Part shown: positions 1-64,000 of the stretch, in pieces | How positions within the stretch are numbered: the stretch's first letter is position 1 | How the letters are laid out: every line of letters starts with the position of its first letter | DNA from: Candidatus Omnitrophota bacterium | Lineage (GTDB): Bacteria > Omnitrophota > Gorgyraeia > Gygaellales > Profunditerraquicolaceae | Direction: 5' to 3' | Assembly: GCA_029571225.1 (NCBI GenBank) | Contig: JAKPTF010000035.1 | Span: 12,575-76,574, forward strand | DNA: 64,000 bases | Program-made: the position numbers and the translations under genes | The notes under the pieces: generated by a model | Database searches by the model: none | Seen by the model: only the letters and a program-made list of their open reading frames with translations | Told to the model about the DNA's origin: nothing

Positions 1-185
1 CTGCTTCAGCGCGGTCAAAGCGCCCGCATTCTCGAAGATCGTATTGGCGCCGATGACCAGCGCACCCTGGGTTTTTTGTTCGGCGCGCACCGCATTCACG
101 ACATTGCCGAAATACGTCGAAACCGCCTGGTACACGGCCTGATCCATCTCAAACAACGGCGCGGGCATATTCGTTGCAACACCGC
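1..185 (-). other. Shared C-terminal domain, copy 1 (N-terminal part only; the rest is off-window)
   Basis: KDGG | VATNMPAPLFEMDQAVYQAVSTYFGNVVNAVRAEQKTQGALVIGANTIFENAGALTALKQ aligns with copies 2 and 3. Confidence 0.7.
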
Positions 186-3100
186 CGTCCTTAAGCACGC
201 GGCCGACCTGCCCAGCGGGCTTTTGGGTCGTATCGACCACAACCGGAGTTTGAACATTTTCGAACACGACGACTTTTCTGGACGACGACGGATCAGCTTT
301 GTTCGCAGTTTCCAGCTTAGCCTCTGCGATGCTCGCGGCGATCCCGCCGAACCTGAGCAGCTCCTCCTCGGTCGCAAGGCGGCGCCATTCGTCCCAGAAG
401 ATATCAACGCCTGCCCACGCGGCGCCGAGTTTGAGCGTGTCGTAGCTGATAAAGCTCAAGCCTGTGCCCAGGTCCTTGAAATATTCCAGATATTTGTCCA
501 GCTCGAGCGTGTTGGCAGGCGTGGCGATATCGACACCGACCTCAAGGCCGTCCTCGCCGGGTATGATCTTCAAGTCTTTGAGGATGTCACGCCAGGCGAT
601 CATGATCGCGCCTGCTTGCGTTCCCTTGACATGGGTGATCTGCAGACCGAAGTTCTTGCGGTCCGCAGGCGGCAATGAATCGCGCACGTTCTTGAACGCC
701 TTCAATGCCATGCGGTTGATCTGCCACATGTCGCCGATTGCCCGCGCAGCTCCGGCAATGCCGTAATCGGGATTCGGGTTGACCTGCTCCTCGAGGAATC
801 CTGCGCGCAGATCGCTGAACTGGACACAGTTGAGGCTATCTGTCTTGTGGATCACCAGCGCGCCGGGATGAGCCGCCAGGGCGCTGCGCATCGCTTCTTC
901 GAACTTTCCGGTGATGAACTGCTCGGCGGTCCGGCCGTTCAGAATCTTCGAGATGCCCGCGTTCAGGTCATCAAAGTACTGCCTGCGCAGGCCGCTGATC
1001 CAATCGTTGCCCAGCGACACCGCGCCTTTTTGCTTCGCGTCATCAAGGACATCAAGCATGAACTTTTTGATCACCGGCTCGCGCAGCGACTCGACTTTGG
1101 TTTCCAGCCTGGCAAGCAGCCATGCCCGCTTTTCGGCGCTGGTTTCCTGCATCACTTTTTCGACTTCATCAACGAGCTTGGCGACATAATCGTCAAACAT
1201 CTTGGCCTGCTCGGTCCAATCCTTCTTTTCGTATGCCAGGATAGCCCGGGGATGATACACCATGGCTGCGTACACGTCATTGGCGTTTTCGGCTACTGCC
1301 GCTTTGACCGGAACCTGCGGTTTCGTTTGCGGCACGGGAAGCCTGCGCAGCGGGGTTTTGATCTTGACGACATCGAGATTCCCTCTGTATATCTTCTTTG
1401 CGCCATAATCGACCGTCACGAACTTGCCTTCCAGAATGCCGCGCGAGGCGTTGATGCCTTTCGCTATTGCCTTGATACGCGTCGGAATGATTGATTTGTT
1501 CTTGTCGAAAACATCCCACCCGGTAAGGTCTGCGTCGGCGTCAACGATGATCGCCGGGACATACTGCAGATGCTGCCAGTCAATGCCTCTGCGTTTTAAT
1601 CCGGCAACGGAATTGTCCCAAGCCTTTTTCCACAGCTCAAGGATTTTCTTCCTGGCGTTCGGGTCCGTGATGCTGGCGTCAACCTGCTCCTTGAATTTCA
1701 TTTCGGGGACATCCAGGTTGGTCCAGACAAACAGGCCGTTATCCAGTTTCCGCATAAGCGGTTTCTGCCCCGGCGTGAGCGTCAGATATTCGAAAGCGCT
1801 TGCTCCGACTGCCGCGGATATCTCTTCCTTGGAAAAGGCGACCGGATTTCTGGTTATCACCGCGATCTTTTCGAAGAAGCGCGAAGTGGACCGGGCATCT
1901 TTCAGGCTTTGCAACTTGAGCGATTCCTTTTTGGCCAGAAGATCAGGGCCCTGCAGGCCTTTCAATGCGTCAGGAATCAGATCTTCGATGCCGTCCACGA
2001 AAACGATTTCGCCCTTGATAATGCCTTTTTTCTGCCGGACTTCACCCTGGCTCAGGTCGAACAGCGGATGTTTTTTTGCGTCATCAGGCAGGGATTTTAT
2101 TTCTTTCGTCGCAGCCATGACGTCGTACCGTGTCATGGACGCAGGCAGCCGGACTTTCATCATGCTGACGCCGAATGAATCCAGAAGCACCATGATCTTG
2201 CCCGCGGTTTCGTAATCGCCGCGGTTGACCAGGGCGGTGATCGCCTCGCCGCACAGACTTGTCGCAACCTCTTCATCTTCTGCGGATGCGACAACCGCTT
2301 CGATCAGCTGGAGCATAACGTCGGCGCCTTCATCGATGAGCGGAAGCCGCTTGGTCCCCTCGTCGTAAAAGTATCCGGCGCGTTTCATCTCGGGTATGGC
2401 CGCGATGGCTGCCGGATCCATGATCTTGAGTTTCATCTTCGGGTCCTCGCGGTCTCCCATGCCGGCAAGATGCGAATAGTCGTTGGTGCCGAACGAAAAG
2501 AACGTATGCTCAACGCCGTATTTCTTATATTTCCTGCCCATATCGGCCATTTTCTTTGCAAGCTGCGGCACATCCATGGCAGCGCTCGGAACCTCGATCA
2601 TGATGCCGATTTCTTTGGGCAATTTTCCTTTTTGCCTGGCCTTATACTCGATGATCGTATCCAGTGTTTCCAGCTCGCGGATCGAGCGTATGAAAACATA
2701 AAACCAGGCCTGGTTTTTGGTATTCTGATGCGCTTCGATGACCGAATCGAACAGAAAATCGAGCACAAGCTGGTTCCCGCCGAACTGTTCGTCAAACGCC
2801 TCGATCTCAAGCGAAGTTCCGCGCAGGCCGACAAGGGGATTGACCCCCGGCCATGAGAATATCTCGGAGCCGGGCATGCCGCGGATCTTATCCTGGGCAA
2901 AATCATACGCGCGGTTCTTGGCAACCTGGTCAGGCGCGATGGTAAATCCCATGAGGTTATAAAAATAGAGAAACTCCTTGCTCACGTACTCTTTGAAGTT
3001 TGCATACCCTTTTTCATTCAGTTTTTTATTAACCTCATCCAGTATCCAGGGATGATTCTGCAGGTCGGTCAGAATGTTGTAATTATAGTTGAACCTGCGC

Positions 3101-6100
3101 TGGAACTTGCCGTAGGCATATGAGAAAAACTCATAGTCGTCCTTGTTTAATCCTTCCACAAAATTAAGATCGGCTTTTTGCTGCGGAAACACCTGCGCCG
3201 CATCTATCTTGTTCAACCTAATATCAGACATCAGGTCAAAAACAGACAGAACGGACAGCATATCGTTTATCTCCGGCAGCCGGCCGTAGGTTTTTACGAA
3301 CGTAGCTGCGGCTGTCGGGTGTTTGCGCATATACTCAAACATTTCCCGGCTCATAGTATCGAGGAACTTTTCCGCGCCTGGCATGGACGTGCGTGCCCGG
3401 TCATTCGCGTATACCCGCTGCGGCATTGCAATTGTGCCGTCTGCGATCTGCTGAAGCAGGAAATGTCCGTAGCCCGCATACACATTGATGCCGATCTCCT
3501 CGCCCTTGAACTCGGCGCGCGTCAGGGCATTGCCTGCAGAGTCGGTCGCGAGCATGATGGGTGAATTCTGCTGGGCTGCGCTCGTGGCCGCGATAATCTG
3601 GCCAATTTTCGGATAGGGCATGTTATCCGGATCTCCAGGAATCAAAGGCGGCTCAACCGTAAACTCTACGTAATTGACCGGTATGCGCTTTTCCGGATCA
3701 GAATCCATTTCGTAGATATTGCCGTTATTTGCGTCAACAGTAAGCGCATCGCCGGTCTTGACAAGCTGACCTCCAAGCATGACCTTCCCGGCGCCCGTTA
3801 CCGCCGGAATACCCTGCTCGCGGCAGAAAATCGCAGCATGACACGTATCCCCGCCACGGATCGTGACGACGGAATTAACGAGGCGCATAATCGGATCGTG
3901 GTTCGGATCCGCTTCCAGAAGGTATAGGATGACAGGAAGCGGGTTATCAGGGCCGATATCGTTCAAGTCAAACCCGATCTCCTGTATGCGCCGGCGTTCC
4001 TCATCGGTGAAATCCCCTGATTTCAACCTGCGGATCTGGTCGGCATGCCAGGCGATATCCTTGTTCGGATCGAACACAAGCACGTATCCGTGCGTGGCGT
4101 TTTCTCCTTTCGTACCGCTGGCAATCGGTTTGGCATCCGAATGATCTTCGATCCATTTTTCATCGGCCTCTGTCCTGGCACGGACGACGTCCGTTTTAAG
4201 GTATTCCGCGGTATACGGCCGCGCCTGGACATTGTACAGCCGCATGGGCATTGCCTTGATGCGCGCCTTATCCTCCTCGCTTTTAACCTCAGCGCGCTCG
4301 CCCCTGGCATCCACCCCCCATATCCGGCCGTCTACGTCTATTTCGTAGATGCGCAGCGCCTTGTCTTCGGGCGCGGTCCGGTCGACTTCGATGGCGAATT
4401 CGATATCGCGTTTGTCACCGTAATATTCGACGATATTCCACCCCATGCGCGCGACATGCGCTGCCATTTCGTCGGCAAACGTAAAGGTGTTCTGATGGAC
4501 CTTGGTCGTCTTGAAATTCGACGTAAAGCTGTTATCGACGAGCGCCCGCATGAGATAGCTCAGATTTTCCATCTCCACGCCGGAAAGGCCGAGTTTATTG
4601 AGCACGGCAATCCGTTCGGGAAGTTCGAATTCCTTGTTCTCCCATGTCTCTTTGATCATGTAGATGAACGTATCGGCTTTCTTCATATCGCCGAGCTGCG
4701 CTGCCAGTTTATGCATACCGCGGGTTGTCTCTTTTTCCGCTTTGGTGACTTCCTCGAAGACGTTACGCACAACGCCCGATAATTCCGCTTCCTGAAAACC
4801 TTTTTCGCCCTTGCGATGAGCAATGAGAAATCGCTCCTTGATAAAATCCATGACCGCCGCTTCTGGTTCTTTGGCTTTGATCATGGCGGCAATGTCATTG
4901 GCAATACGCTGCACCTGAGCCTTTTTCTGTTTTTCGTCAATACCTTCTGCTCTCAAATATCTGGTACCGTATAATTTGGTAGCCAGGATACCGTTAATGC
5001 GCTTGCCAACCTCGTCATAGGCAATCGCTTCTTTGAGCGTGACGGCCAGCGTATTCAATTCTTTTTCGCTCATCTTGCCCGTGAAAGACTCGATCACATC
5101 CTCGACATTGCGCATCTGAATAAGTTTATTGCCCTTGTTCTTTTCGATCACGAACCAGTGTTCGCCGTCATACGTCGCCATGACATACTTGTCAGGGCTG
5201 ACCTTGCCGCCGACCACGTTTTCCCCGTATCCGAACGCGATCTCGAAGCTGGCTACGATCGCCTTGGTGCCGGTGATCAGTCCGGTCTTTTTATCCCTGA
5301 AAAGCAGAGAATCATCGTTCTTGAACCATGCGTTGTATAAGGACTGAGCTACGCCGGCCATTTTCGTTGCGGGATTGACGGTAAACAGGACGCCTGCAAG
5401 ATAACTCTTGACCATCTGCATGATGACGACGTCGATGCCGATCTGTTCAGGATGCGTCACCTCTTCGGATTTCTTTTTCAGCACCTTGAGTGCCTCAGCC
5501 AGCCACTCTTCCCGCTCGTGACTCAAAATTTCTTCCATCGCATTCATAAGATTTACGGACCCGGGATTCGGGCTCGATATTTGCGACATCTGGTCGGCAT
5601 ACGCGGCATATTCGGGCTTGTTGAGCTTCTTGGCATATTCCCGCAGTTTTGCCACAATGTCCCAATACACATCCTGCGAAAGCTTGCCTTGATAGTCGAT
5701 GGCTCCTGAAAACTGCAGGAATGTGGCGTCATCGCGGTAGCTGACTGCGCGGTCGGTAAAAAGGCTTGCGAAATCAGCGCGGGTCTTATCAAGGACCGCT
5801 TTGTCGCCTTTGACGTTCAAAAATGTATCCGATTGCCCTGCCTGCGAACCGGTGGATACCGGCAGCCAGGTCTTGACATGGATATCCTCTTTCGTGCCCG
5901 AGGAGCGCACGGCGACTGCCGCAGGAACGGCCTTGCCTGTGACCTGATACCTGATCATGCTCAACTGGTGGTACATCGAGATGATCTCATCCTTGATATC
6001 CGTCGGGATGGGAGCGTTCTTTATGGTTTCCCTTATCTCAGACGTAACCACATCCCGCTTCTGGTCGTCCATGGTGTCCAGCGTCTGAAGCTCATTGAAT

Positions 6101-7179
6101 ATCTTTTCCCAGACGTTCCTGTTGTTCCTGACAAACTCGAAATATGCCGTCGTTGTGACGTTCTGTCCGCGCGGCACATCAACGATACGGGACATGACCG
6201 ACAGGCTCAATCCCTTGCCGCCTGCAAGCGCAAGGCCTACCTGCTTGGCCTGTCTGCGGCCGACCTCTTTGGCGTCTTCAGAAACCGACACCTGTGTCGA
6301 AACATCAGTCGCGACACCGGTCACTGCGATAGCCCCTGCCCCTGCGCCGGCGGTTTCCGCCCCGCCGGTCGGGCCAAACATCGGCCCCGCACCCATCCCC
6401 ATATGGACCATGTCGCTGCCGACGAGCAGGGCAGCCATTTCCTTTGCCTTTTCCATCCCGACTTTCCTGGCCAGTTCATACACATAATCGCGCAATTCGC
6501 CGAACTCCACGACCATGCGCTCATTGACCGGGACCAGGCTTCTTTTTTCCAGCACCAGATAATCGTGGACGAGAATATCCACGACCGAAATCCCTTCCCG
6601 TTTCATTGCCGCGACATCCTCTTCGATGTTCTCGGCATCGCGCGCGAACACCGATAGCGGCAGATCCGGAATATCGCTGACGATCGCCTTGACCACGTGT
6701 TCCCCGGCAGCGTCCTCTTTCACCAAAGCAAGGGGAATGTCCGTATAGGTCAGGGTGTAAAATTTATCGCCCGGGTTGACCGCGCCGAAATAGTCCGCAA
6801 GATTCGCCTTTGCCCTGGGAGAACGAGCCAGGTCTATCTGCTGTTTTATAAATGTCCCGTAGGCGAGATTATCGATGGTCGCCGAAATCTTATAGTCGCC
6901 CAGAAATGCCTTGAAGGCATCCGCGCCTTTTGCCTCCTGGGAAGCGCCTGACCCGCCGTCCTTTGGAGCGAGAATCTCGGTTTTGGCAACTGACGCGGGC
7001 GCGACGTCAAGCGCCCGGCGTATCTCGGTAAGCCTGCCGCCGTCACGCGCAGGCGCGGGACGCAGGTTCGAATCACCAGCCAGCGCGCGCAGGGGCGCTG
7101 CACTCACGATAAACTGGACGGAAACAATGACGGCGATTATCTTTCTGGTAAACATAGATTTCGTCAACCTCTGGAACAT
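1..7179 (-). CDS. Partial (3' end beyond left window edge) large secreted multidomain protein with a PEP-utilizing enzyme core (PEP synthase / pyruvate phosphate dikinase family) and the start of the shared C-terminal domain
   Basis: My own reverse-complement translation. Start ATG at 7177-7179 is preceded by a GGGAGGAG Shine-Dalgarno and an in-frame upstream stop at 7195-7197. N-terminus MFQRLTKSMFTRKIIAVIVSVQFIVSAAPLRALAG is signal-peptide-like, followed by two DGG junctions (ARDGG, APKDGG). ATP-grasp region: GLALAGGKGLSLSVM ... AVRSSGTKED ... GSQAGQSDTFLNV. Phosphohistidine swivel: TIRGGDTCHAAIFCREQGIPAVTG (about 3780-3850). PEP/pyruvate-binding C-terminal barrel: NPLVGLRGTSL ... FFSFGTNDYSHLAG ... 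MGDREDPKMKLKIMDPAAIA (about 2400-2880). A KDGG junction at about 185-195 is followed by ...QGALVIGANTIFENAGALTALKQ, which matches the C-terminal domain of the next two genes. Absent from the ORF track only because it has no stop codon in the window. Confidence 0.8.
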   Translation of the reverse strand, partial: MFQRLTKSMFTRKIIAVIVSVQFIVSAAPLRALAGDSNLRPAPARDGGRLTEIRRALDVAPASVAKTEILAPKDGGSGASQEAKGADAFKAFLGDYKISATIDNLAYGTFIKQQIDLARSPRAKANLADYFGAVNPGDKFYTLTYTDIPLALVKEDAAGEHVVKAIVSDIPDLPLSVFARDAENIEEDVAAMKREGISVVDILVHDYLVLEKRSLVPVNERMVVEFGELRDYVYELARKVGMEKAKEMAALLVGSDMVHMGMGAGPMFGPTGGAETAGAGAGAIAVTGVATDVSTQVSVSEDAKEVGRRQAKQVGLALAGGKGLSLSVMSRIVDVPRGQNVTTTAYFEFVRNNRNVWEKIFNELQTLDTMDDQKRDVVTSEIRETIKNAPIPTDIKDEIISMYHQLSMIRYQVTGKAVPAAVAVRSSGTKEDIHVKTWLPVSTGSQAGQSDTFLNVKGDKAVLDKTRADFASLFTDRAVSYRDDATFLQFSGAIDYQGKLSQDVYWDIVAKLREYAKKLNKPEYAAYADQMSQISSPNPGSVNLMNAMEEILSHEREEWLAEALKVLKKKSEEVTHPEQIGIDVVIMQMVKSYLAGVLFTVNPATKMAGVAQSLYNAWFKNDDSLLFRDKKTGLITGTKAIVASFEIAFGYGENVVGGKVSPDKYVMATYDGEHWFVIEKNKGNKLIQMRNVEDVIESFTGKMSEKELNTLAVTLKEAIAYDEVGKRINGILATKLYGTRYLRAEGIDEKQKKAQVQRIANDIAAMIKAKEPEAAVMDFIKERFLIAHRKGEKGFQEAELSGVVRNVFEEVTKAEKETTRGMHKLAAQLGDMKKADTFIYMIKETWENKEFELPERIAVLNKLGLSGVEMENLSYLMRALVDNSFTSNFKTTKVHQNTFTFADEMAAHVARMGWNIVEYYGDKRDIEFAIEVDRTAPEDKALRIYEIDVDGRIWGVDARGERAEVKSEEDKARIKAMPMRLYNVQARPYTAEYLKTDVVRARTEADEKWIEDHSDAKPIASGTKGENATHGYVLVFDPNKDIAWHADQIRRLKSGDFTDEERRRIQEIGFDLNDIGPDNPLPVILYLLEADPNHDPIMRLVNSVVTIRGGDTCHAAIFCREQGIPAVTGAGKVMLGGQLVKTGDALTVDANNGNIYEMDSDPEKRIPVNYVEFTVEPPLIPGDPDNMPYPKIGQIIAATSAAQQNSPIMLATDSAGNALTRAEFKGEEIGINVYAGYGHFLLQQIADGTIAMPQRVYANDRARTSMPGAEKFLDTMSREMFEYMRKHPTAAATFVKTYGRLPEINDMLSVLSVFDLMSDIRLNKIDAAQVFPQQKADLNFVEGLNKDDYEFFSYAYGKFQRRFNYNYNILTDLQNHPWILDEVNKKLNEKGYANFKEYVSKEFLYFYNLMGFTIAPDQVAKNRAYDFAQDKIRGMPGSEIFSWPGVNPLVGLRGTSLEIEAFDEQFGGNQLVLDFLFDSVIEAHQNTKNQAWFYVFIRSIRELETLDTIIEYKARQKGKLPKEIGIMIEVPSAAMDVPQLAKKMADMGRKYKKYGVEHTFFSFGTNDYSHLAGMGDREDPKMKLKIMDPAAIAAIPEMKRAGYFYDEGTKRLPLIDEGADVMLQLIEAVVASAEDEEVATSLCGEAITALVNRGDYETAGKIMVLLDSFGVSMMKVRLPASMTRYDVMAATKEIKSLPDDAKKHPLFDLSQGEVRQKKGIIKGEIVFVDGIEDLIPDALKGLQGPDLLAKKESLKLQSLKDARSTSRFFEKIAVITRNPVAFSKEEISAAVGASAFEYLTLTPGQKPLMRKLDNGLFVWTNLDVPEMKFKEQVDASITDPNARKKILELWKKAWDNSVAGLKRRGIDWQHLQYVPAIIVDADADLTGWDVFDKNKSIIPTRIKAIAKGINASRGILEGKFVTVDYGAKKIYRGNLDVVKIKTPLRRLPVPQTKPQVPVKAAVAENANDVYAAMVYHPRAILAYEKKDWTEQAKMFDDYVAKLVDEVEKVMQETSAEKRAWLLARLETKVESLREPVIKKFMLDVLDDAKQKGAVSLGNDWISGLRRQYFDDLNAGISKILNGRTAEQFITGKFEEAMRSALAAHPGALVIHKTDSLNCVQFSDLRAGFLEEQVNPNPDYGIAGAARAIGDMWQINRMALKAFKNVRDSLPPADRKNFGLQITHVKGTQAGAIMIAWRDILKDLKIIPGEDGLEVGVDIATPANTLELDKYLEYFKDLGTGLSFISYDTLKLGAAWAGVDIFWDEWRRLATEEELLRFGGIAASIAEAKLETANKADPSSSRKVVVFENVQTPVVVDTTQKPAGQVGRVLKDGGVATNMPAPLFEMDQAVYQAVSTYFGNVVNAVRAEQKTQGALVIGANTIFENAGALTALKQ

Positions 7180-7217
7180 TGTACTCCTCCCATGTTAGGA
7201 CGATTTTAAAATATCGG

Positions 7218-7900
7218 TTATATCTTGTTCAATGTATCTTCGAATATCACCTGGAGTCTGGCTATGTCATCGCTGACCGCAACCAGCGGAATATCCGATA
7301 TCTGAGCTGTTAATTCATTAAGGGACTTGGCATCCGCCTCGCTGATCATGCCCCTGTCCTTAAATGCCTGCACCATTTTGGCGAACTGCGCTCTCGTAGT
7401 GCCGACGTCGAATATAATGGCGATCGCCTTGGCGATTGCCAGCGGGACTGCGTTGATCTGTTTGACCGCCCCTGCCGTCCGCGCGGTCGAAACATGGACC
7501 ATCTGCAGCTCGCGATTATTGTTGAAGAATACGCTTGCATCGGGTACCTTGTACTCATCCTTGATATTATCGAGATCGAGATCCGAGTTGATGAGCACGA
7601 CTTTTCTGGGTGATATTTTGAGCTTCTCCATTGCCATGAGGGTTTCGCCCAGGCCCGTGTAGATTGTCGCTATTTTGTCAACGCCCAGCGCCTTTAACGC
7701 TGCGACGTCATCGTTATTCCTGGCCCATACGGCTATGGTGAGGACATTGGCCGCGTCGCGTGCCTGAGTGAGCGCTGCAATGCTGCCCGCGTTCTCGAAT
7801 ATGGTGTTGGCACCGATGACCAGCGCTCCTTCGATCCCTTCTATTTCGCGAACGCCCTTGATGATACCTTCATACATAAATGACGTTGCGCTGTACACGT
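7218..7900 (-). other. Shared C-terminal domain, copy 2 (roughly 230 aa, ends EDTLNKI)
   Basis: GALVIGANTIFENAGSIAALTQARDAANVL ... LINSDLDLDNIKDEYKVPDASVFF ... INAVPLAIAKAIAIIF ... DIPLVAVSDDIARLQVIFEDTLNKI. No family recognised by eye. Confidence 0.7.
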
Positions 7901-10073: not shown

Positions 10074-10120
10074 TATCTCCCCCTTTTTATCGGCTTAGAT
10101 GGCATTACGATATATGCATG

Positions 10121-10153
10121 CCTGCGCGGCAGGCATCATGCCTGCCGCGCAGG
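10121..10153. promoter_or_regulatory. GC-rich 13-bp perfect inverted repeat (stem-loop) in the 89-nt gap between the fusion-enzyme gene and the PGI gene
   Basis: CCTGCGCGGCAGG (10121-10133), loop CATCATG, CCTGCCGCGCAGG (10141-10153). No U-run follows on the coding strand, so it is more likely an mRNA processing or stability element, or a protein-binding site, than an intrinsic terminator. Confidence 0.45.
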
Positions 10154-10162
10154 TAATTGATA

Positions 10163-10880
10163 TTAAATCTTGTTGAGCGTATCTTCGTACACGGTCTGCA
10201 TTGCTGCGACTTCGTCGCTGACAGACACCAGCGGCACATCGGCCAGCTGCGCGGCGAGCTGCGTGATGTTAAGCAGGTCTTCCGAGCTGATGAGGCCTTT
10301 GTTCATATACGCAGCGGCCATGTTCTGGAGCTGCTGTCTGACCGTATCCTCGGTATTGAAGATCATGGCGAGTGCCTTTGCCATGACAAGCGGCATCGCA
10401 TTGATGCGTTTCTGCGTGACGGCCGCGCGGGATCCGGTTACGCGCACGTTCTTCACCTTTGCCTTTTCGAAGAACAGCGACGCATCGGATACGGTAAACT
10501 CGGCTTCGATATTGTCCATATCGGCATCCGCGCTGATGAGCGCGATCCTGGCCTGCGGGATCTTTGCCGCGGTCACTGCCTCAAGTGCCGCCTTCAAACC
10601 AACATGGATCGTCGCGATCCGGCCGACCCCTAATGCCTCAAGGGTCAGCTTAGCCGCGTCGTCCTTTGCCCATACGCTGAAGTCCACAACGCCTGCCGCA
10701 TCTTTTGCTTTCTCGAGCGCCGCGATGCTGCCGGCGTTTTCCATGATGGCGTTGGCGCCGAGGATAACCGCGCCCCTGGCGTTCTGGACATCGCTGATTG
10801 ATTTGACGAGATCATCGAAGTTCAACGCGCCTGCATTGTACACGCTTGCATCGCTCTTAAGCACAGTCTCGATGAGATCG
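10163..10880 (-). other. Shared C-terminal domain, copy 3 (roughly 230 aa, ends EDTLNKI)
   Basis: GAVILGANAIMENAGSIAALEKAKDAAGVV ... LISADADMDNIEAEFTVSDASLFF ... INAMPLVMAKALAMIF ... DVPLVSVSDEVAAMQTVYEDTLNKI. Confidence 0.7.
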
Positions 10881-13800
10881 GCGATATCGACCATTTCGGG
10901 AAGCACCGTCTCTGTTTGCGCAAGCGCAACGGAGGCGCCTCCGTCCTTTGCATAGTCGCCATTGACGAGGGCGCGCATTCTCACGCCGTCCACCATCCAC
11001 GGTGACCATTTGGAGATCATCTGGTTGGGAGCGGCTGACTGGTTGTCATACAGGCCTTTGATGATCACGGTCTTCTTGTTTTCCAGCACCTGGATCAGCA
11101 CGCTGTCGATGATTGATATATTGTTCCAGCCGACGACCGCATTGACATCGAGCGGGCCAGGGTTGACCTCTGGATCGCCCTCATAGAATTTCACCACTCC
11201 GTCCGACTTGTTGAGCGCGAAATCCTTCAAAGCGGCACGGACCTCCTCCACGGTAGTTTCTCTTTTCAGGTTCAGGGTCACTTCCCACAGGGACGCAGAA
11301 ACCGTATCCGTGCGCACAGCGGTTATCTCGAACTTGCCTTTGAGCTGCGGTATCATCTTGAACAGGTTCTTCTTGGCCCCGGTGGAGGCGGGAATGATAT
11401 TGTCGCGGATCGAATCTCCGCGGGCAATATCAAGCGGGTCGCGCGCCCTCTTGCTCTTCATGGGGAAAGTCTCGTTCGAATCGGTCTCCGAATGGATGGT
11501 CAGGCCGGTCCCGTTGACGATACCGAACTCGTCCCACATGGCCTTGATGACCGAGATCATGGCGTTGGACGTGCAACTGAGCGTGTCAACGATCTTGACA
11601 TCCGGCCCGATCTGTTTGCGCATGGCAGAATACAGCGCTTCTTTGAACACGGCGCTGACGGATTTATCGACCGTGTCGGCGCTGACGCCTTCCTGAAGGA
11701 ACTTTTCCTTGAGCATATTCTTCACCGCGTCGGTGTTGACCGGGGAGGCGGCGACAACGGGGAATCCGGCTTCCATGAACTCCTTGAAAATGCGCGGCTG
11801 GACCTTTTCGTCAGTCGGGCCGTAATACGATACCACATCCGGCTTGACTCCGAGTGTCCTGACGGTATCGAGCACCTGCTGATTCGTCGTTTCTGGGCCG
11901 AAATACGGAATCTTTATATCGGGCCTTCCTATATTTTTGTCGCCCGGCACGAAGATGAAATTGACCTCGACGCCGTCAACGACCCTGCGCTCGTCCTTGA
12001 GCACGCGCATACCTTTCACCTGGTACGGCCCGAACGGGCCGTTGTACCTGCTGTTCATGCGCACGAATTCCTCTGCGCTGGCTTCTTTGCCGCCCTTCAT
12101 GGACTTGAGAGCCGCCAGATTGACGCCCGGCTCCCAGTTCTTATAGAAAAGCGCAAACGCTCCGGCGCGGAAAATAAGCGCGTTCGCCGCGATGACCACG
12201 ATGTTCTGGTCCTGCAATGCCAGATCAAGCTTCTTGGGCGTATTGCTTTTCGCAAAAACGCCCATTCCGGCAAGGATCTTGACCTGCGCAAGCTGCCGGT
12301 CATCGATACGGTGCAGGATCCTTCTGATCGACTGCATGACTTCCTGGTTATCGCCGCTTTCCTTCTTGATTGTATTCAATTTCCACAGAACAGCCTTCAT
12401 TTCATCAAGGCCAAGGGACAGTATCTCACCCGGCTTGAGCTGATACAAACGCTTGACCGCAGCCTGATACCGCAGTTGATTCATAGCTGCCTTACCAAGC
12501 TTGAGGTTTGTTTTTTCATTGACAAGCGCCATATTCGCCAGCAGGTATTCATCGCGGTGGGCGCCTTTGTAATCCAGCTGCCTGCCGCCGAGTTCCTGAT
12601 CGAACGGTATGGACTTGATCTGGCCCTTATAGGCGTAGAGCAGCTGATTGTTCTGAAGGTCGGCGATTTTCTCAACAGCCGCTTTGCCGAGCATGCCGGT
12701 CATTTCCTCGTCAAGTTTGGAAATATCAGCCGAGCGGAAAAGATAATCGGCCTTGCCTGCGAGGCTGATGTCGATTTTATCTTCCTTGAGCGCCGTCTTT
12801 ACCACGGCCGCGACGATTAAACCGGCGTTCTCGAGTTTGGGATGACCGAAATCGTCAACGCCGGCTTTCATTGATTTAATGAACGCCGCTTTGGCAACCG
12901 GATCGCTGTTGAACGCCGCCAGCAGCAGCTTGACATCGGCATTGCGGGGCTTGACGACTTCAAGGTCTCCGTTGTCGTTCAGCCTGAAGCCGTCGGTCGC
13001 GATGCTGGCTCCTTCAGCTACGACGACGACGCCGTATTTGTTCTGCTTGTAATACGCTCGCAGATCATCCACCAGCTTCTTCAGATCCACCATCTCTTCG
13101 GGGATCAGGGTACGGGTAGCACCGACATTGGCGCCGATGCGCGCCGCAACAAACCCTGCGCTTCTGCCGAACACTTCGCCGATGAGAATCCTTTTTGTCG
13201 ATATGGCGTCGATTTTTCCGGCTTCGAAGGCGTCCGTAGCGGCCCGGGTAAAGCTGTCAAAACCATAGGTCTGCGCATCCGGTTCTGGAAGCGCGATATC
13301 ATTGTCCATGGTCTTGGGCAGGCCGATAAAAAGGAATTCAGGATGCTCTTTCTGCAGCTTTGCCGTAACGCCATTGGTATCGTCGCCGCCCAGGGTAACA
13401 AGGCCGTCCAGATCGAGCTTTTTGATATTCTCCCAGACTTTCTGCGCGTCACCTTCCTTTTTATACGGATTGGTGCGGCTTGTCTTTATGAATGTGCCGC
13501 CTTTTTTCTCCCACTTTTCGGCTTCCGAAAGGCGTATCGCCCTGGCCTGCGCCACAAGATCGTCTTTGATGAGGCCGGCCCATCCTTCGGGGATAGCAAC
13601 GATCTCGATACCGTTCTTCAGACCTTCGCGCACCATCGCTGCAAGGACCTTGTTATGCCCTGACGCGGGTCCGCCGCCGGTTAACACTCCAATCCTCTTG
13701 GGTCCGACCAACTGTGAAAATTTGACCCCCTGGCGGTCGGTAACGACCTGCTCCTTATACCTGATACCGGTGATAAATTCCACGGCATCGGCAACGGTCG

Positions 13801-15313
13801 AGTTCTCTTTGCCGCCGATCTCGCCGACTTCGGCTTCCAACCCGGCGTCCTCGGGAATAAAACCGGCAAGAAATGCGCTCACAAGCACGTTCAAGCGCGT
13901 GGGCATGAACGACGCGTCAAGCGCAAAGACGGCATGATCTTCTGCAACCTGCTTCTTTACCTGAAGCATGGCCTTGTTGACTGCCTTCATCGCTTTGCCC
14001 ACGCCGGGCGCTGCGTTGAATGCTTCGTCCTTTAAGGCCGCATTGAACATGGCTTCTCTTTTCGCGATGTCTTTTTCAGCCAGTATCCTCTCGAACAGCT
14101 CCGCAACCGCATTCTGCGCCCCCGTGTCCTTCAGGAATGCTTCATCGACTTTGACGGTGACGTGGTCCGACTTGTTCATATAATCGCGGAAACCCTCTTT
14201 CATCGCGGCTGCTTTGGTGTTTGCCGCAAACCTGGCGACGTTATCGAGGCTGTATCCGCCCGGCCAGGTGTAATCGAGTTCGCTCATGGCTTGCTGGAAC
14301 ACGACCACACTGCCGGTCTTTTTTGCCGCGCGTATGATGCCGGGCAGGCTGAGCGGATGGCGTATATTGCAGCACATGATCGCCTTATCCGTTCCTTCGA
14401 GCGCCTTGAACACATGATAACCCTTGAGCGACGAAAAATCGGACGGGTATTCCAGGCCGTTGGCCTGATAATAATCCCTGACCATCTGCGCCGTGCCGTC
14501 AGAGCCAAAACCGATCATGTGCTCGGTCGCCGATTTCTCGGTCGCGGCGTCGATCTTTTCGATAAGGCGCGCGGGAAGCCCCAGAAGCTCCTGATGGAAA
14601 TCGCCGATGACCATTTTCAGCTCTTTGCCCAGAAGCTTGTCGAGGTCTTTGTCTTTTCCTGCGACATACACGCTGTTCTTGGCTTCATCGCTGCGGGGAG
14701 AAACCTTGTATTTCTTTTCCACGTCCGCGGTCTTGGCGATCGTCGCGTCGATCATGCGGTTGACGATTGATTTGGCCGTCGCGTCTCCGTTCTGCGCTTC
14801 GGCAACAAGCGTTTCCCAGATGATATTCTGCCAGTTCGTGCCGACGTGAGCGGCGCTGATGCCGACATTGCGCAAGGCCTGGAGGTTCTCAATGGGAGTA
14901 CCGGTAACGCCGTGCTGCACGATCTTGACGCCGTAGGGTTTGATCGCTTCGTAAATGGCGCCGGTCATCTTCAGGTTCATCTGCGTCTTGATGAGATTGC
15001 CTTCGGCATCGTAGTTGTTGCCGTGGGCGGTGCCGTTATTGATCGCAAGACGCTGGATCATGCGCGGCAGGTAATCAGCAAGCCCCTTGCCTTTGCTCAC
15101 CACGATGAATTTCCCGGTCGCCAGCGAACCGCCGTCCTTGCCGAGAAACTCGCTTTTCATGGCCAGAGGCTGATTGGTATGGTTGGCCGATCTGCCCCGG
15201 AGGTGGTCAAATGAGACGACGCCTGCCATCGAGGCGGTGTTGAACGTGAATATGCCGATAATAAGCAATGCCGTTATCCTGAATAACACCCGAGCGAACC
15301 GTGAACCGTTCAT
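10163..15313 (-). CDS. Secreted multi-enzyme fusion: class II fructose-bisphosphate-aldolase-like region, PPi-dependent phosphofructokinase, unknown middle region, GAPDH-like catalytic domain, shared C-terminal domain
   Basis: The ORF-track call 10163-15343 begins at a TTG. The in-frame ATG at 15311-15313 has an AAGGAG Shine-Dalgarno 9 nt upstream and is the more plausible start (MNGSRFARVLFRITALLIIGIFTFNTASMAG, signal/TM-like). A GKDGG junction follows. Aldolase-like: TAHGNNYD ... VKIVQHGVTGTPIENLQALRNVGISAAHVGTNWQ, and later GYHVFKALEGTDKAIMCCNIRHPLSLPGIIRAAKKTGSVVVFQQAMSELDY. PFK: RIGVLTGGGPASGHN, LGGDDTNGV, PKTMDNDI; the GGDD and PKT variants are the PPi-PFK signatures. GAPDH-like: LSCTSNAMISVIKAM, LYDNQSA. 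YAKDGG precedes the C-terminal domain ...GAVILGANAIMENAGSIAAL ... VSDEVAAMQTVYEDTLNKI. Confidence 0.75.
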   Translation of the reverse strand: MNGSRFARVLFRITALLIIGIFTFNTASMAGVVSFDHLRGRSANHTNQPLAMKSEFLGKDGGSLATGKFIVVSKGKGLADYLPRMIQRLAINNGTAHGNNYDAEGNLIKTQMNLKMTGAIYEAIKPYGVKIVQHGVTGTPIENLQALRNVGISAAHVGTNWQNIIWETLVAEAQNGDATAKSIVNRMIDATIAKTADVEKKYKVSPRSDEAKNSVYVAGKDKDLDKLLGKELKMVIGDFHQELLGLPARLIEKIDAATEKSATEHMIGFGSDGTAQMVRDYYQANGLEYPSDFSSLKGYHVFKALEGTDKAIMCCNIRHPLSLPGIIRAAKKTGSVVVFQQAMSELDYTWPGGYSLDNVARFAANTKAAAMKEGFRDYMNKSDHVTVKVDEAFLKDTGAQNAVAELFERILAEKDIAKREAMFNAALKDEAFNAAPGVGKAMKAVNKAMLQVKKQVAEDHAVFALDASFMPTRLNVLVSAFLAGFIPEDAGLEAEVGEIGGKENSTVADAVEFITGIRYKEQVVTDRQGVKFSQLVGPKRIGVLTGGGPASGHNKVLAAMVREGLKNGIEIVAIPEGWAGLIKDDLVAQARAIRLSEAEKWEKKGGTFIKTSRTNPYKKEGDAQKVWENIKKLDLDGLVTLGGDDTNGVTAKLQKEHPEFLFIGLPKTMDNDIALPEPDAQTYGFDSFTRAATDAFEAGKIDAISTKRILIGEVFGRSAGFVAARIGANVGATRTLIPEEMVDLKKLVDDLRAYYKQNKYGVVVVAEGASIATDGFRLNDNGDLEVVKPRNADVKLLLAAFNSDPVAKAAFIKSMKAGVDDFGHPKLENAGLIVAAVVKTALKEDKIDISLAGKADYLFRSADISKLDEEMTGMLGKAAVEKIADLQNNQLLYAYKGQIKSIPFDQELGGRQLDYKGAHRDEYLLANMALVNEKTNLKLGKAAMNQLRYQAAVKRLYQLKPGEILSLGLDEMKAVLWKLNTIKKESGDNQEVMQSIRRILHRIDDRQLAQVKILAGMGVFAKSNTPKKLDLALQDQNIVVIAANALIFRAGAFALFYKNWEPGVNLAALKSMKGGKEASAEEFVRMNSRYNGPFGPYQVKGMRVLKDERRVVDGVEVNFIFVPGDKNIGRPDIKIPYFGPETTNQQVLDTVRTLGVKPDVVSYYGPTDEKVQPRIFKEFMEAGFPVVAASPVNTDAVKNMLKEKFLQEGVSADTVDKSVSAVFKEALYSAMRKQIGPDVKIVDTLSCTSNAMISVIKAMWDEFGIVNGTGLTIHSETDSNETFPMKSKRARDPLDIARGDSIRDNIIPASTGAKKNLFKMIPQLKGKFEITAVRTDTVSASLWEVTLNLKRETTVEEVRAALKDFALNKSDGVVKFYEGDPEVNPGPLDVNAVVGWNNISIIDSVLIQVLENKKTVIIKGLYDNQSAAPNQMISKWSPWMVDGVRMRALVNGDYAKDGGASVALAQTETVLPEMVDIADLIETVLKSDASVYNAGALNFDDLVKSISDVQNARGAVILGANAIMENAGSIAALEKAKDAAGVVDFSVWAKDDAAKLTLEALGVGRIATIHVGLKAALEAVTAAKIPQARIALISADADMDNIEAEFTVSDASLFFEKAKVKNVRVTGSRAAVTQKRINAMPLVMAKALAMIFNTEDTVRQQLQNMAAAYMNKGLISSEDLLNITQLAAQLADVPLVSVSDEVAAMQTVYEDTLNKI

Positions 15314-15329
15314 CGTTTCTTCTCCTTTT

Positions 15330-16859
15330 TTAATCTTCCGCAAGATATGTATCCTCGAGTTCTCCCTGTTCCCCCCGGAGAACGGAATAATAGATTGACG
15401 GGTCAGACCGCTGCGATATCGAAGGGGTAACCACGGCGTAGGAATAACCGTGCTCCTTGAACAACCTGCTCAAACCGGATGTGTGAAAACCGCCGGTAAT
15501 GACAGCGACATAGCTGCTGTCCGATGCGGTATTGATCTTCCGGGCGATATTGCGCATGAACGCCTGTTCGCGGTCGATCCCGACTTTATAAAAACTGTCG
15601 AGCGCATCGAAATTTTCATCGATGACCGTAGACGCGACGGGCCGTGACGGAAGGCCGTACCTTCTGCATGAATCGGATAGAAACACGATCCATCCGGCGG
15701 TCACATAGCGGGAGCGGTCGGCCTGCATGGCGTCGTATTCTGCGGGCGTCAGGTCGAGCCGCAGGAACTGATCGAGGGTATCGAGCGCCTCCGAAATGTC
15801 GCTCAGGCGGCGTTCGTCATTATTAACAAAAAGCTCCTGCCGCACACGCGCCTCCAGTTCGGAGATCTCCCTGATCAATTTCTCCGCATCGATATTCCTG
15901 CCCATAGCGACATACCGCATGTATGCGTCGAACTGCGGATAGGCTGCCGCCAGATCAAGGTGGTCCTGCGCGGCATTGCGCAAAAAGTCATAAAATTCCT
16001 GAGCGGATATCTTTTTGTCCTTGAAATCCGCCGTCTTATCTATCAACTCCTTAATCGAGGCGCCCTGCAATTTCTGGGCAAGGTCCTTGATGAATGCGCT
16101 CCGCTGGGACTCCGCCTGTTTGAAATCGATCGTCTTTTCAAGTTCGAGGCTTTCCCTGAACAAATTGACCTGCTGGCATTCGGACAGAGAGATACTCTTC
16201 TTTTGCGCCGATTCGGCAAGATATGTAACGTATTTGACCAGCGGTAACGCTTTATGCTTGAATGCTCGTTTCTGCGCATCGAGCTCAATCAGCTCGGGAT
16301 TGAACATATGCGGCTTGAGCGCCTCGACAATAGCGGCCAGCCCGTTGATATCGTTCAATCCCTGCTCCTTGTATGCCTCTATATTAAGGAAGGAATCCAG
16401 GTTGCTGTCGTATAATGCGGGGTCTTCAATGCCGAAAAGCTCAAGGTTATGGTCGGAAACGATGTCGAGGTATTCTTCCCCGGATATCTTGCCGTCGCGG
16501 AGGTATTTTTCAGCGACTTCCTCGCGCGCCTTTTTATCCGCAAAGTCCCTTAAGAACGAAAGGCTCACGTCGCCGCTGCCCCCTTCGACCATGATGAGCC
16601 TCAATTTCTTTTCGCGGGCAAGATAATCAAGGATCTGCGCAAGGTTCTTTTGTGCTTCGTAGTTACAATGGGCGTCCTGGATCTGTATTATTGCAGGGCC
16701 GGGCCGTCCTGCCTGTGGCGCTTCGAAGACTTCCTTGATTGTGCCGAACTGGGAAGGTATCTGAAGATTTTTTAAAGGGGTGCTTGGAAAAACGGGATTG
16801 ACATAAATTAAGGAAAGCAATAAGAAGAATGGAATAGTTTTTTTAAGTTTTTTATTCAT
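15330..16859 (-). CDS. Secreted TraB/GumN (Tiki-like) family protein, putative
   Basis: ORF 15330-16991, but the convincing start is the internal ATG at 16857-16859 (MNKKLKKTIPFFLLLSLIYVNPVFPS, a classic signal peptide). The C-terminal motif AVITGGFHTSGLSRLFKEHGY resembles the TraB/GumN GxGHxxGxxGLxxLLxxxGY motif; N-terminal IQIQDAHCNYEAQ is a possible first His motif. The stop at 15330-15332 lies 17 nt from the next gene's ATG, which indicates translational coupling. Confidence 0.45.
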   Translation of the reverse strand: MNKKLKKTIPFFLLLSLIYVNPVFPSTPLKNLQIPSQFGTIKEVFEAPQAGRPGPAIIQIQDAHCNYEAQKNLAQILDYLAREKKLRLIMVEGGSGDVSLSFLRDFADKKAREEVAEKYLRDGKISGEEYLDIVSDHNLELFGIEDPALYDSNLDSFLNIEAYKEQGLNDINGLAAIVEALKPHMFNPELIELDAQKRAFKHKALPLVKYVTYLAESAQKKSISLSECQQVNLFRESLELEKTIDFKQAESQRSAFIKDLAQKLQGASIKELIDKTADFKDKKISAQEFYDFLRNAAQDHLDLAAAYPQFDAYMRYVAMGRNIDAEKLIREISELEARVRQELFVNNDERRLSDISEALDTLDQFLRLDLTPAEYDAMQADRSRYVTAGWIVFLSDSCRRYGLPSRPVASTVIDENFDALDSFYKVGIDREQAFMRNIARKINTASDSSYVAVITGGFHTSGLSRLFKEHGYSYAVVTPSISQRSDPSIYYSVLRGEQGELEDTYLAED

Positions 16860-16861
16860 GG

Positions 16862-16918
16862 GCAAATAAAAAAGCCACGACTCACTGAATCCTCTTTTCC
16901 GGAGGCATTCAGTCATCC
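16862..16918 (-). terminator. Terminator/attenuator-like hairpin followed by a U-run, immediately 5' of the TraB-like gene's ATG
   Basis: Minus-strand RNA: GGAUGACUGAAU-(16-nt loop GCCUCCGGAAAAGAGG)-AUUCAGUGAGUCGUGG, then CUUUUUUAUUU, then GCCC AUG. A 7-bp perfect stem plus imperfect extension. Could terminate giant-gene transcripts or act as a leader attenuator. Confidence 0.35.
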
Positions 16919-16946
16919 GTGGCCATTCCATACTGTATGTGCTTCT

Positions 16947-16964
16947 TTTGAAAGCGCTTTCAAA
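16947..16964. promoter_or_regulatory. Perfect 18-bp palindrome TTTGAAAGCGCTTTCAAA, candidate operator
   Basis: Seen directly. Positioned just downstream of the candidate -10 element and about 90 nt upstream of the MNKKLKK start. Confidence 0.4.
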
Positions 16965-16981
16965 ACGCCTTACTATTAAAA

Positions 16982-17010
16982 AAGATACCATAGAACACCA
17001 TTTCTGTCAA
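16982..17010 (-). promoter_or_regulatory. Candidate sigma70-like promoter for the downstream (lower-coordinate) genes
   Basis: On the minus strand: TTGACA (17010-17005), a 17-nt spacer, then TATCTT (16987-16982). Lies in the AT-rich 217-nt gap between the giant gene's stop and the TraB-like gene's start. By eye only. Confidence 0.3.
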
Positions 17011-63996: not shown

Positions 63997-64000
63997 AGAA

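Follow-up and report, generated by a model that had tools for sequence, protein, structure and literature searches.

Fused, leader-bearing glycolytic enzymes with a common C-terminal domain, and a candidate Asp-Gly-Gly processing motif, in an Omnitrophota gene row

Why would a bacterium fuse the enzymes of its central carbon metabolism into long polypeptides, with a signal-like leader in front of them and a common domain behind? The question is raised by a 64-kb stretch of contig JAKPTF010000035.1 (the window, meaning the whole DNA analyzed here) from a Candidatus Omnitrophota metagenome-assembled genome (MAG), in which five co-directional open reading frames (ORFs), all on the minus strand, are separated by gaps of 16-89 nt. 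Three consecutive genes encode glycolytic enzymes, as Pfam, Protein Data Bank (PDB) and NCBIfam searches agree: gA (1..7179, with its C-terminus beyond the window start) specifies an enzyme of the phosphoenolpyruvate (PEP) synthase/pyruvate, phosphate dikinase (PPDK) family; gB (7218..10073) a 951-aa glucose-6-phosphate isomerase (PGI), identified by Pfam, NCBIfam and homologs; and gC (10163..15313), identified by Pfam, PDB and NCBIfam, a fusion of class II aldolase, a phosphofructokinase (PFK) of apparent inorganic pyrophosphate (PPi) type, and glyceraldehyde-3-phosphate dehydrogenase (GAPDH). Upstream of these lie gD (15330..16991), encoding a 553-aa signal-bearing protein of an Omnitrophota-wide family recognized through homologs only, and a giant ORF (17077..63999) of more than 15,640 aa, recognized by its open frame and Pfam matches, whose N-terminus lies past the window edge. 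A preliminary description of this DNA had read the three glycolytic proteins as one organized set with signal-like N-termini and a common C-terminal domain, possibly displayed at the cell surface. The observation of fused, leader-bearing glycolytic enzymes with a common C-terminal domain is confirmed here; the interpretation is partly supported, in that organized, fused glycolytic enzymes are right and surface display and the PPDK assignment are unsupported.

The gC product (1726 aa from the first TTG, at 15343; 1716 aa from the likely ATG, at 15313) joins three enzymes in one chain. On the minus strand, a leader (15128..15313) ending in K-DGG (15128..15136) is followed by the aldolase (13709..15127), PFK (12566..13699), the GAPDH catalytic domain (11012..11671), a further DGG (10937..10945) and the C-terminal domain (10166..10936). 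Pfam matched class II aldolase at 1.2e-10, PFK at 2e-54 (185 bits vs a cutoff of 30.9) and Gp_dh_C at 9.6e-21, as expected from the aldolase-like, PFK and GAPDH-like regions described previously for a single polypeptide. The PFK aligned with PDB PFKs at E-values of 1e-24 to 1e-31, including the PPi-dependent enzyme 9dqm (4e-25). An Asp in the GGDD motif and a Lys in the PKTxDND motif tell PPi-dependent from ATP-dependent PFKs, and both substitutions named in the preliminary description are present within 13298..13390: GGDD at 13379..13390 (aa 652) and PKTMDND at 13298..13318 (aa 676). By these signature residues the enzyme would be PPi-type. It has the fold and the Asp/Lys signature of the PPi-dependent PFKs (PF00365; PFK_mixed/PFKA_PPi), but it lies between aldolase and GAPDH in a 1716-aa leader-bearing protein and scores below the NCBIfam equivalog cutoffs (PFKA_PPi_Ttgales, 166 bits vs 550). 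The GAPDH domain carries SCTSNA (11561..11578) and TIHSET and aligns with PDB GAPDHs at chain residues ~120-327; Gp_dh_N had no Pfam match in gC, where ~200 matchless residues precede the catalytic domain, and was matched in one of 28 members of the family defined by the C-terminal domain. The aldolase match in Pfam is partial (profile positions 166-266 of 277), and the region appears circularly permuted, PDB chain residues 195-252 preceding 103-157 at weak E-values of 4e-4 to 6e-3; its sequence contains SDH, TAHG and VQHG as candidate ligand motifs.

Circular permutation was also observed in other TIM-barrel enzymes: besides the gC aldolase, in which the C-terminal half appears to come first, it affects the triosephosphate isomerase (TIM) module of the giant, the TIM encoded downstream of gA and the TIM of P0057, a distant Omnitrophota fusion. 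The permuted TIM modules begin at strand 3 (GAQN...) and finish with strand 1 (G-N-W-K). Since P0057 has the same order, the permutation seems old in the phylum; we found no description of permuted TIM-barrel enzymes of Omnitrophota in the literature.

The gB product is 100% identical to NCBI HQJ15126.1 (MAG TPA: hypothetical protein PLJ26_01370, Candidatus Omnitrophota bacterium) and consists, on the minus strand, of a leader (9864..10073) ending in K-DGG (9864..9872), a PGI core (7974..9863) and the C-terminal domain (7221..7961). Its PGI identity, proposed earlier, holds: the Pfam match is weak and above cutoff (E 7.8e-6, 25.2 bits vs 22), an NCBIfam transaldolase/PGI model matches at 6.5e-41, the protein is 41-48% identical to ~600-aa Omnitrophota proteins named glucose-6-phosphate isomerase by JGI, and the motifs GMGGSGLS, GGRF, EESLGK and NHSYQQ are kept in the PGI family. 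Those stand-alone ~600-aa PGIs have neither leader nor C-terminal domain, and they start and stop where DGG or a linker sits in gB and in protein P0002.

The open frame of gA takes up 1..7194 of the window; the full protein, read from ENA contig L001, has 2573 aa, of which at least 2393 lie within the window and the last ~180 beyond its start. A leader is followed by an enzyme block of ~2250 aa with large insertions, a DGG and the shared C-terminal domain. Pfam detected PPDK_N (E 4.5e-52; 4993..6228), the PEP-utilizers mobile domain (3e-14; 3721..3936) and PEP-utilizers_C (5e-12; 2242..2847), and the phospho-histidine motif TCHAA, FGTNDYS and the cysteine of SLCGEA are present, so that assignment to the PEP synthase/PPDK family stands as a three-domain dikinase with catalytic His and Cys. 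Within that family, PEP synthase models (NF005057, 1.3e-80; TIGR01418, 6.4e-77) score far better than the PPDK model (TIGR01828, 9.3e-19), all below the curated NCBIfam cutoffs because of the large insertions; the enzyme thus appears closer to PEP synthase (pyruvate, water dikinase) than to PPDK. A proposed PPi economy that paired a PPDK-type enzyme with a PPi-dependent PFK therefore keeps its PFK half, by signature, and is weak in its PPDK half. In the leader (6952..7179, minus strand), MFQRLTKSMFTRK is followed by hydrophobic residues, ALA and G-D-S-N-L-R-P; its two DGG motifs, at 7036..7044 and 6952..6960, are both kept in a relative described below. Beyond a third DGG (181..189), only the beginning of the shared C-terminal domain lies within the window (1..189, minus strand). 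The protein has roughly three times as many residues as a typical PEP synthase, with an ATP-grasp region stretched to 412 residues over 279 profile positions and ~630 residues after the PEP-binding domain (aa ~1700-2330; window 190..2241 region) that have no match.

In transcriptional order the operon-like row reads giant, gD, aldolase-PFK-GAPDH, PGI, PEP-synthase-like enzyme and, just beyond the window, a gene (on ENA contig L001) for TIM, phosphoglycerate kinase (PGK), enolase and a Peptidase_M54 domain behind the same leader as in gA-gC; its TIM (L001 14595..16813) keeps YEPRW. Counting a ROK kinase encoded in the giant, most of the Embden-Meyerhof pathway is represented at the locus; no phosphoglycerate mutase was identified among the locus proteins. 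The same gene row is found in a relative (JGI Ga0116236_10000047, 173 kb; ENA NODE_104; NCBI GCA_035430765.1) that encodes, in order, a giant of 39,470 aa, a gD homolog, aldolase-PFK-GAPDH of 1885 aa, PGI of 947 aa, a dikinase of 2552 aa and TIM-HEAT-PGK-enolase of ~2600 aa. Its proteins are 35-73% identical to those of the window, and enzyme blocks are 41-73% identical between lineages. The joining of aldolase, PFK and GAPDH in one polypeptide is therefore real, as it recurs in the relative.

That the long fused ORFs are artifacts of assembly, frameshifts or gene calling is suggested by their unusual lengths and by nothing else, and we regard it as negligibly probable: the same or near-identical proteins recur in independent ENA, NCBI, Logan and JGI assemblies, architecture and synteny are kept in the diverged relative, and the 46.9-kb frame of the giant is open on one strand and in one frame only. 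Recurrence in independent assemblies and the conserved gene order exclude chance or misassembly. It is also very improbable that the enzymes are decayed copies recruited as binding or adhesin modules, whether moonlighting or pseudo-enzymes. Such decay would account for a TIM-like module in the giant that has no catalytic Glu or phosphate loops, for a GAPDH NAD-binding domain undetectable by sequence and for the low Pfam scores of aldolase and PGI, but the catalytic motifs are kept in PFK, GAPDH, the dikinase, the PGI family and the downstream TIM, the enzyme blocks remain well conserved between lineages, and the whole pathway is covered in pathway-like order.

The C-terminal domain that the preliminary description had noticed on all three proteins spans ~230-235 aa, ends in EDTLNKI and is 41-49% identical among the paralogs. 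A word-indexed protein search with this domain alone gave no match, whereas an exhaustive hidden Markov model (HMM) search of 1.84 billion representative proteins gave 96, at the extreme C-terminus every time. Among the 65 of these 96 proteins that were scanned with Pfam, the partner domains are overwhelmingly glycolytic or gluconeogenic: PPDK_N/PEP-utilizing, PFK, GAPDH, class II aldolase, PGK, TIM, enolase, cupin-type glucose-6-phosphate isomerase and fructose-1,6-bisphosphatase (FBPase), with aldose 1-epimerase, UDPGP, a GatZ-like aldolase subunit and an F420_oxidored-type Rossmann domain as further partners and one case each of DHH and HEAT_2. Because nearly every identified partner is a glycolytic or sugar-phosphate enzyme, the view of these enzymes as one organized set is strengthened.

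The fold of the domain is tentatively Rossmann-like: AlphaFold modeled it with a pLDDT of 90 from 25 sequences and of 53 from 3 sequences. Foldseek returned nothing significant (best E 0.009, TM-score ~0.3, to generic Rossmann folds), and Pfam had no match. Sequence identity to the phosphatase core of the HAD superfamily is only 6-19%, and a conserved G-A-N occupies the position of the HAD nucleophile motif DxD; on these grounds, together with the Foldseek and Pfam results, the domain is not a catalytic HAD. The extreme C-terminus reads Y-E-E-T-x-x-K-I, with variants -NKI, -GKI, -SKV and -TKL, and its likeness to peroxisomal targeting signal (PTS) type 1 or PDZ-type signals is probably superficial and coincidental.

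At the other end, the N-termini of gA, gB and gC each have a basic stretch, ~17-23 uncharged or hydrophobic residues and then AxA, so that the signal-like character attributed to them earlier is upheld, as judged by eye and by a hydropathy scan. Across 56 full-length-looking members of the C-terminal-domain family, the leader follows a consensus of a basic stretch, ~20 hydrophobic residues, AxA, D-x-L-R-P, 15-35 residues and K-D-G-G. A hydrophobic N-terminus is present in 42 members and D-(N/H/S)-L-R-(P/K/R), 0-6 residues after AxA, in 41; DGG lies at residues 34-75 in 28, usually preceded by Lys and often with (D/E)-L a few residues earlier. The N-flank of the hydrophobic stretch is more basic than its C-flank, and a 17-23-residue uncharged stretch fits a cleavable signal and a signal anchor alike. 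A Tat signal was considered and rejected; FKRSFL occurs in the n-regions of some relatives, but the twin arginine is unconserved and is absent from most window leaders.

The tripeptide that closes the leaders also punctuates the giant. Asp-Gly-Gly (DGG) occurs at 37 sites in the visible giant against 4.2 expected and is its most enriched tripeptide (8.9x). All 32 coding-strand copies of the octamer GACGGNGG lie in frame 0 and none in the other two frames, and the GAC/GGC codon choice at DGG is that of ordinary D-G and x-G-G dipeptides, so the signal lies at the protein level. Explanations at the DNA level (an internal Shine-Dalgarno sequence, a pausing site or a recombination scar) were rejected on the same two grounds, and no consistent start codon was found downstream of DGG sites. 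None of the 37 sites falls within the 3572 residues of the giant covered by Pfam (P ~7e-5). The 38 segments that they delimit have a median length of ~340 aa, as is usual for bacterial proteins, and a six-AAA midasin-like ring stays whole in a single DGG-free segment of 2330 aa. BLAST alignments among seven paralogous ~450-aa modules of the giant end exactly at DGG; in protein P0182, DGG directly precedes the N-terminus of PFK, and in the giant the His-rich N-tail of a cation-diffusion-facilitator (CDF) transporter comes immediately after it. In the 35-73%-identical relative, DGG is kept at aligned positions and the flanking linker varies in sequence and length, a pattern typical of short linear motifs and suggestive of one that is read by a trans-acting factor. 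The -4 position is Lys, Arg or Gln at 29 of 43 sites.

In our preferred reading, which we would give an even chance of being correct, these genes encode the Embden-Meyerhof glycolysis/gluconeogenesis of this uncultured bacterium as DGG-processed precursors or membrane-tethered multi-enzymes, and we take the enzymes to be the cell's own glycolysis. DGG would mark module boundaries: it closes the leader, in most cases stands ahead of the C-terminal domain, and recurs 37 times in the giant. The boundary position of the motif, the normal size of the segments and the presence of polytopic membrane and soluble modules in one ORF lead us to infer polyprotein-like processing at DGG, with the long ORFs as precursors. 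The leader would bring the nascent chain to the membrane; DGG would be read on the cytoplasmic side, most likely by a Gly-Gly-specific endopeptidase, which would remove the leader and separate the modules; and the C-terminal domain may hold the glycolytic enzymes together, or coordinate their regulation, in a metabolon close to the membrane. A cytoplasmic reader is suggested because DGG flanks modules of the giant that have to face the cytoplasm, namely the AAA+ ring, CoaE, the N-tail of the CDF transporter and GNAT; by extension, the DGG of the leaders and the enzymes behind it would be cytoplasmic as well.

Several observations weigh against this reading. In their AxA and in a charge distribution that obeys the positive-inside rule, the leaders resemble common cleavable Sec signals, which would place DGG and the enzymes outside the cytoplasm, in conflict with a cytoplasmic reader. 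The basic residue at -4 is unlike a classical double-glycine leader. Two DGG sites before the C-terminal domain are unconserved, one being present in the relative and missing from gB, the other present in gA and missing from its counterpart in the relative, and about a third of the leader-bearing family members have no DGG at all. The aldolase-PFK-GAPDH and TIM-PGK-enolase blocks contain no internal DGG and would therefore still be fused even if DGG were cut. Finally, no Gly-Gly-specific peptidase (C39 or papain-like) was found in the 64-kb window, which holds M50 modules only and does not include the N-terminal part of the giant.

The same persistence of fusions within DGG-delimited blocks, the gain or loss of some DGG sites between relatives and the lack of a suitable protease in the window would be expected if no cleavage took place and the proteins worked undivided, as multi-enzymes anchored in the membrane, in which DGG is a conserved hinge or a site where a binding partner or a modifying enzyme docks; Ser-rich junctions elsewhere (SSSP, SSSG) do resemble ordinary linkers, and the giants have been treated as intact membrane-anchored proteins (bioRxiv 10.64898/2026.06.07.730766). 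An invariant tripeptide within freely drifting linkers is unlike a mere spacer, however, and a site-2 protease, a normally dimeric CDF transporter, soluble enzymes and ~50 transmembrane (TM) helices are hard to envisage as one molecule whose segments happen to have the lengths of normal proteins. In the processing of leaders and polyproteins, moreover, no P2-P1 pair is commoner than Gly-Gly. On balance we judge intact multi-enzymes to be a credible but rather unlikely alternative to processing at DGG.

The leaders bear most directly on a different alternative, in which they are genuine Sec signals and the enzymes work in the periplasm, an internal compartment, at the surface or at a host interface, with the stretch from D-x-L-R-P to DGG as a propeptide and the C-terminal domain as a sorting or anchoring domain. 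The leaders do have canonical n, h and c regions, with AxA 0-6 residues before D-x-L-R-P in ~40 members and the more basic flank at the N-terminal side, the gD N-terminus is signal-like too, and several substrates of two-step secretion are likewise built with a signal at the N-terminus and a domain at the C-terminus that their members have in common. Published topology predictions place the sugar-phosphate domains of Omnitrophota giants outside the cell, but the authors themselves suspected a topology error in the extracellular prediction (bioRxiv 10.1101/2023.11.21.568195); 39% of giants are predicted to have a signal peptide plus TM segments (bioRxiv 10.64898/2026.06.07.730766). Against export, glycolysis needs ATP/ADP, NAD+, PPi and phosphorylated intermediates that are not normally found outside the cytoplasm; orthologous PGIs of other Omnitrophota have no leader; PGI fusion partners elsewhere include receiver and histidine-kinase ATPase domains; and the motif behind the leaders, DGG, is found next to obligately cytoplasmic modules as well. 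We consider export unlikely. For the roles in surface display, feeding on a host or partner cell and adhesion that were suggested earlier, no positive evidence emerged, and the leaderless PGIs, the cofactor requirement and the AAA+ ring, CoaE and CDF N-tail beside DGG speak against them. Bolder still, and in our estimate improbable, is a relocation of glycolysis as a whole, every Embden-Meyerhof enzyme bearing an export signal and a sorting or assembly domain and the pathway running outside the ordinary cytoplasm; candidates for the compartment would be an enlarged periplasm, a vesicle inside the cell or the zone of contact with a host cell, and the arrangement would be a bacterial parallel to the glycosome of kinetoplastids.

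Processing at DGG invites comparison with double-glycine leaders, which are cut by C39 peptidases of PCAT ABC exporters and occur in bacteriocins and NHLP/Nif11 peptides. Here, too, leaders of ~60-75 aa end in Gly-Gly, and many members have an acidic residue followed by Leu ~7-8 residues upstream. Classical double-glycine leaders, however, have no hydrophobic signal-like segment, which the window leaders do, and have hydrophobic residues at -4, -7 and -12, where the present ones have Lys, Arg or Gln at -4 and variable upstream spacing; DGG is also internal, 37 times in one protein, and there is no C39 domain in the window. Viral polyproteins (cut at xGG by papain-like proteases) and MARTX toxins (whose cysteine protease domain separates the effector modules) resemble the giant in having a long ORF, normal-sized units and a short motif with small residues, but here the units are bacterial housekeeping and membrane proteins and the processing is our proposal. 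Known glycolytic fusions include PGK-TIM of Thermotoga, the mitochondrial TPI-GAPDH of stramenopiles and bifunctional transaldolase/PGI, and in the glycosomes of kinetoplastids the enzymes are PTS-tagged. The Omnitrophota proteins likewise join consecutive pathway enzymes in one chain and put a common tag on the pathway; the fusion partners differ (aldolase-PFK-GAPDH; TIM-PGK-enolase), and the tag is a folded domain of ~230 aa plus a leader rather than a short targeting peptide, and any compartment here would be hypothetical.

PGI fusions elsewhere in Omnitrophota provide a parallel to the DGG junctions. In proteins P0015, P0021, P0056, P0060, P0027, P0003 and P0062, from lineages with other junction motifs, SSSP, SSSG/SSSS or D-x-A-M-M is found around the PGI core; because different motifs stand at equivalent junctions, these motifs appear to be lineage-specific, as if motif and reader had evolved together. 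The PGI partners in other lineages include response-regulator receiver and histidine-kinase ATPase domains, and many of the fusions share further caps, FWVNLSPYE... at the N-terminus and GGIDLNPALLDLQIKRD... at the C-terminus. A generalization, in which much of the proteome of the clade consists of polyproteins punctuated by lineage-specific cleavage motifs (DGG; SSSP, SSSG, D-x-A-M-M), seems to us a real possibility that falls somewhat short of an even chance.

Omnitrophota giants ("Archaeovorins") with TIM, PGI, FBPase, PGM, aldolase and PPDK-type domains, predicted to be extracellular, have been described, and their cleavage was proposed from C39 and S8 peptidase domains, at points that remained unknown (West-Roberts et al. 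2023, bioRxiv 10.1101/2023.11.21.568195). A "multi-enzyme metabolic" class of giants has since been defined, with no mention of cleavage (Nielsen & Lui 2026, bioRxiv 10.64898/2026.06.07.730766). C39 domains are frequent in these proteins (bioRxiv 10.1101/2023.11.21.568195; 10.64898/2026.06.07.730766). The upstream ORF of the window, from the same phylum, belongs with these giants in size (more than 15,640 aa), in its many unrelated Pfam domains and in the ~50 TM helices predicted by hydropathy scan, a count that is uncertain by +/-1 helix per cluster and was not used to place modules. The published domain lists already include TIM, PGI, aldolase, PPDK-type, ROK kinase, HAD and GNAT domains, and the same papers raise the questions of cleavage and extracellular location. 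The core finding is therefore not new for the phylum, and "highly atypical", as the fused glycolytic enzymes had been called, is apt for bacteria in general and not for Omnitrophota (bioRxiv 10.1101/2023.11.21.568195). The products of gA-gC differ in being mid-sized (951-2573 aa) and in lying beside a giant, not inside one; at less than 10,000 aa they are neighbors or relatives of the giant class and not members by size. In the literature searched we found no account of a whole-pathway gene row, of a glycolysis-associated C-terminal domain, of the D-x-L-R-P...K-D-G-G leader, or of DGG punctuation and its lineage-specific counterparts.

Omnitrophota giants span 10,000 to 147,000 residues, and why such proteins exist and whether they are cut are questions of the field. 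DGG offers a concrete, testable candidate for the cleavage points of the giants and a rule for where to divide them before structure prediction. The C-terminal domain and the leader suggest that a whole pathway is handled as a unit, in assembly, regulation or sorting, which would be unusual in bacteria and bears on metabolic organization in ultra-small, host-dependent cells. If the enzymes were in fact exported, the view of where bacterial central metabolism can take place would change.

The remaining genes of the row yielded further observations. The gD product was rejected as a recognizable protease, since neither its sequence nor a profile of 28 sequences matched anything in Pfam, NCBIfam or the PDB. 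Its family has more than 229 homologs of ~510 aa, Omnitrophota-wide, signal-bearing and 42-73% identical, with the invariant motifs QDAHCNYEAQK, VEGG, GEEY, RE and GGFHT; of these, QDAHCNYEAQK, VEGG and GGFHT may resemble motifs of TIKI/TraB/ChaN hydrolases, and gD could conceivably be a hydrolase. The slot of gD between the giant and the glycolytic genes is occupied by its homolog in the relative, and in protein P0016 a gD-like module is fused N-terminal to PGI.

The giant contains DUF1152, TIM-like, TPR, M50 protease, midasin-like AAA ring and VWA modules, as well as CoaE, HEAT, ROK kinase and CDF transporter modules plus HAD and GNAT. Its TIM-like module (aa 755-1010; 60970..61737, minus strand), which had been noted as an addition to the glycolytic set, starts directly after a DGG, is circularly permuted and is clearly recognizable (Pfam TIM, E 1.4e-41; 1btm, 1.5e-34), but YLPLWVKQQQ replaces YEPIWAIGTG, with Leu in place of the catalytic Glu, and the phosphate loops are lost (YGRY for YGGS, VARFA for VGGAS). 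Because the catalytic Glu and both phosphate-loop glycine motifs are gone, the module probably adds no TIM activity.

A first Peptidase_M50 (site-2 protease) module (aa 2273-2616; 56152..57183) has HEFSH intact, and a second, distantly M50-related module (aa 3248-3618; 53146..54258) is 28% identical to it over 187 aa. The seven paralogous modules of ~434-510 aa (aa 2738-10270; 33190..55788), 22-35% identical to one another and none with a Pfam match, begin with a TM hairpin and end in W-(Y/H)-x-L-N-x-A-(L/V)-D-P...DGG. The midasin/dynein-like ring comprises about six or seven AAA_5 modules with midasin lid domains (aa 4129-6458; 44626..51615), and two segments downstream of it lies a MIDAS-type VWA domain (aa ~7711-7848; ~40456..40869), a pairing within the giant that is midasin-like or MoxR-VWA-like. 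One segment (aa 13885-14503; 20491..22347) combines the CDF transporter with a HAD_2 phosphatase and has HEHHH right after DGG. After its last DGG the giant ends in 33 more residues, IKAFLAGAFNNNVLEKTAIEFVVWIDGCFSTNI (aa 15608-15640; 17080..17178), and the relative keeps both this DGG and the beginning of the tail.

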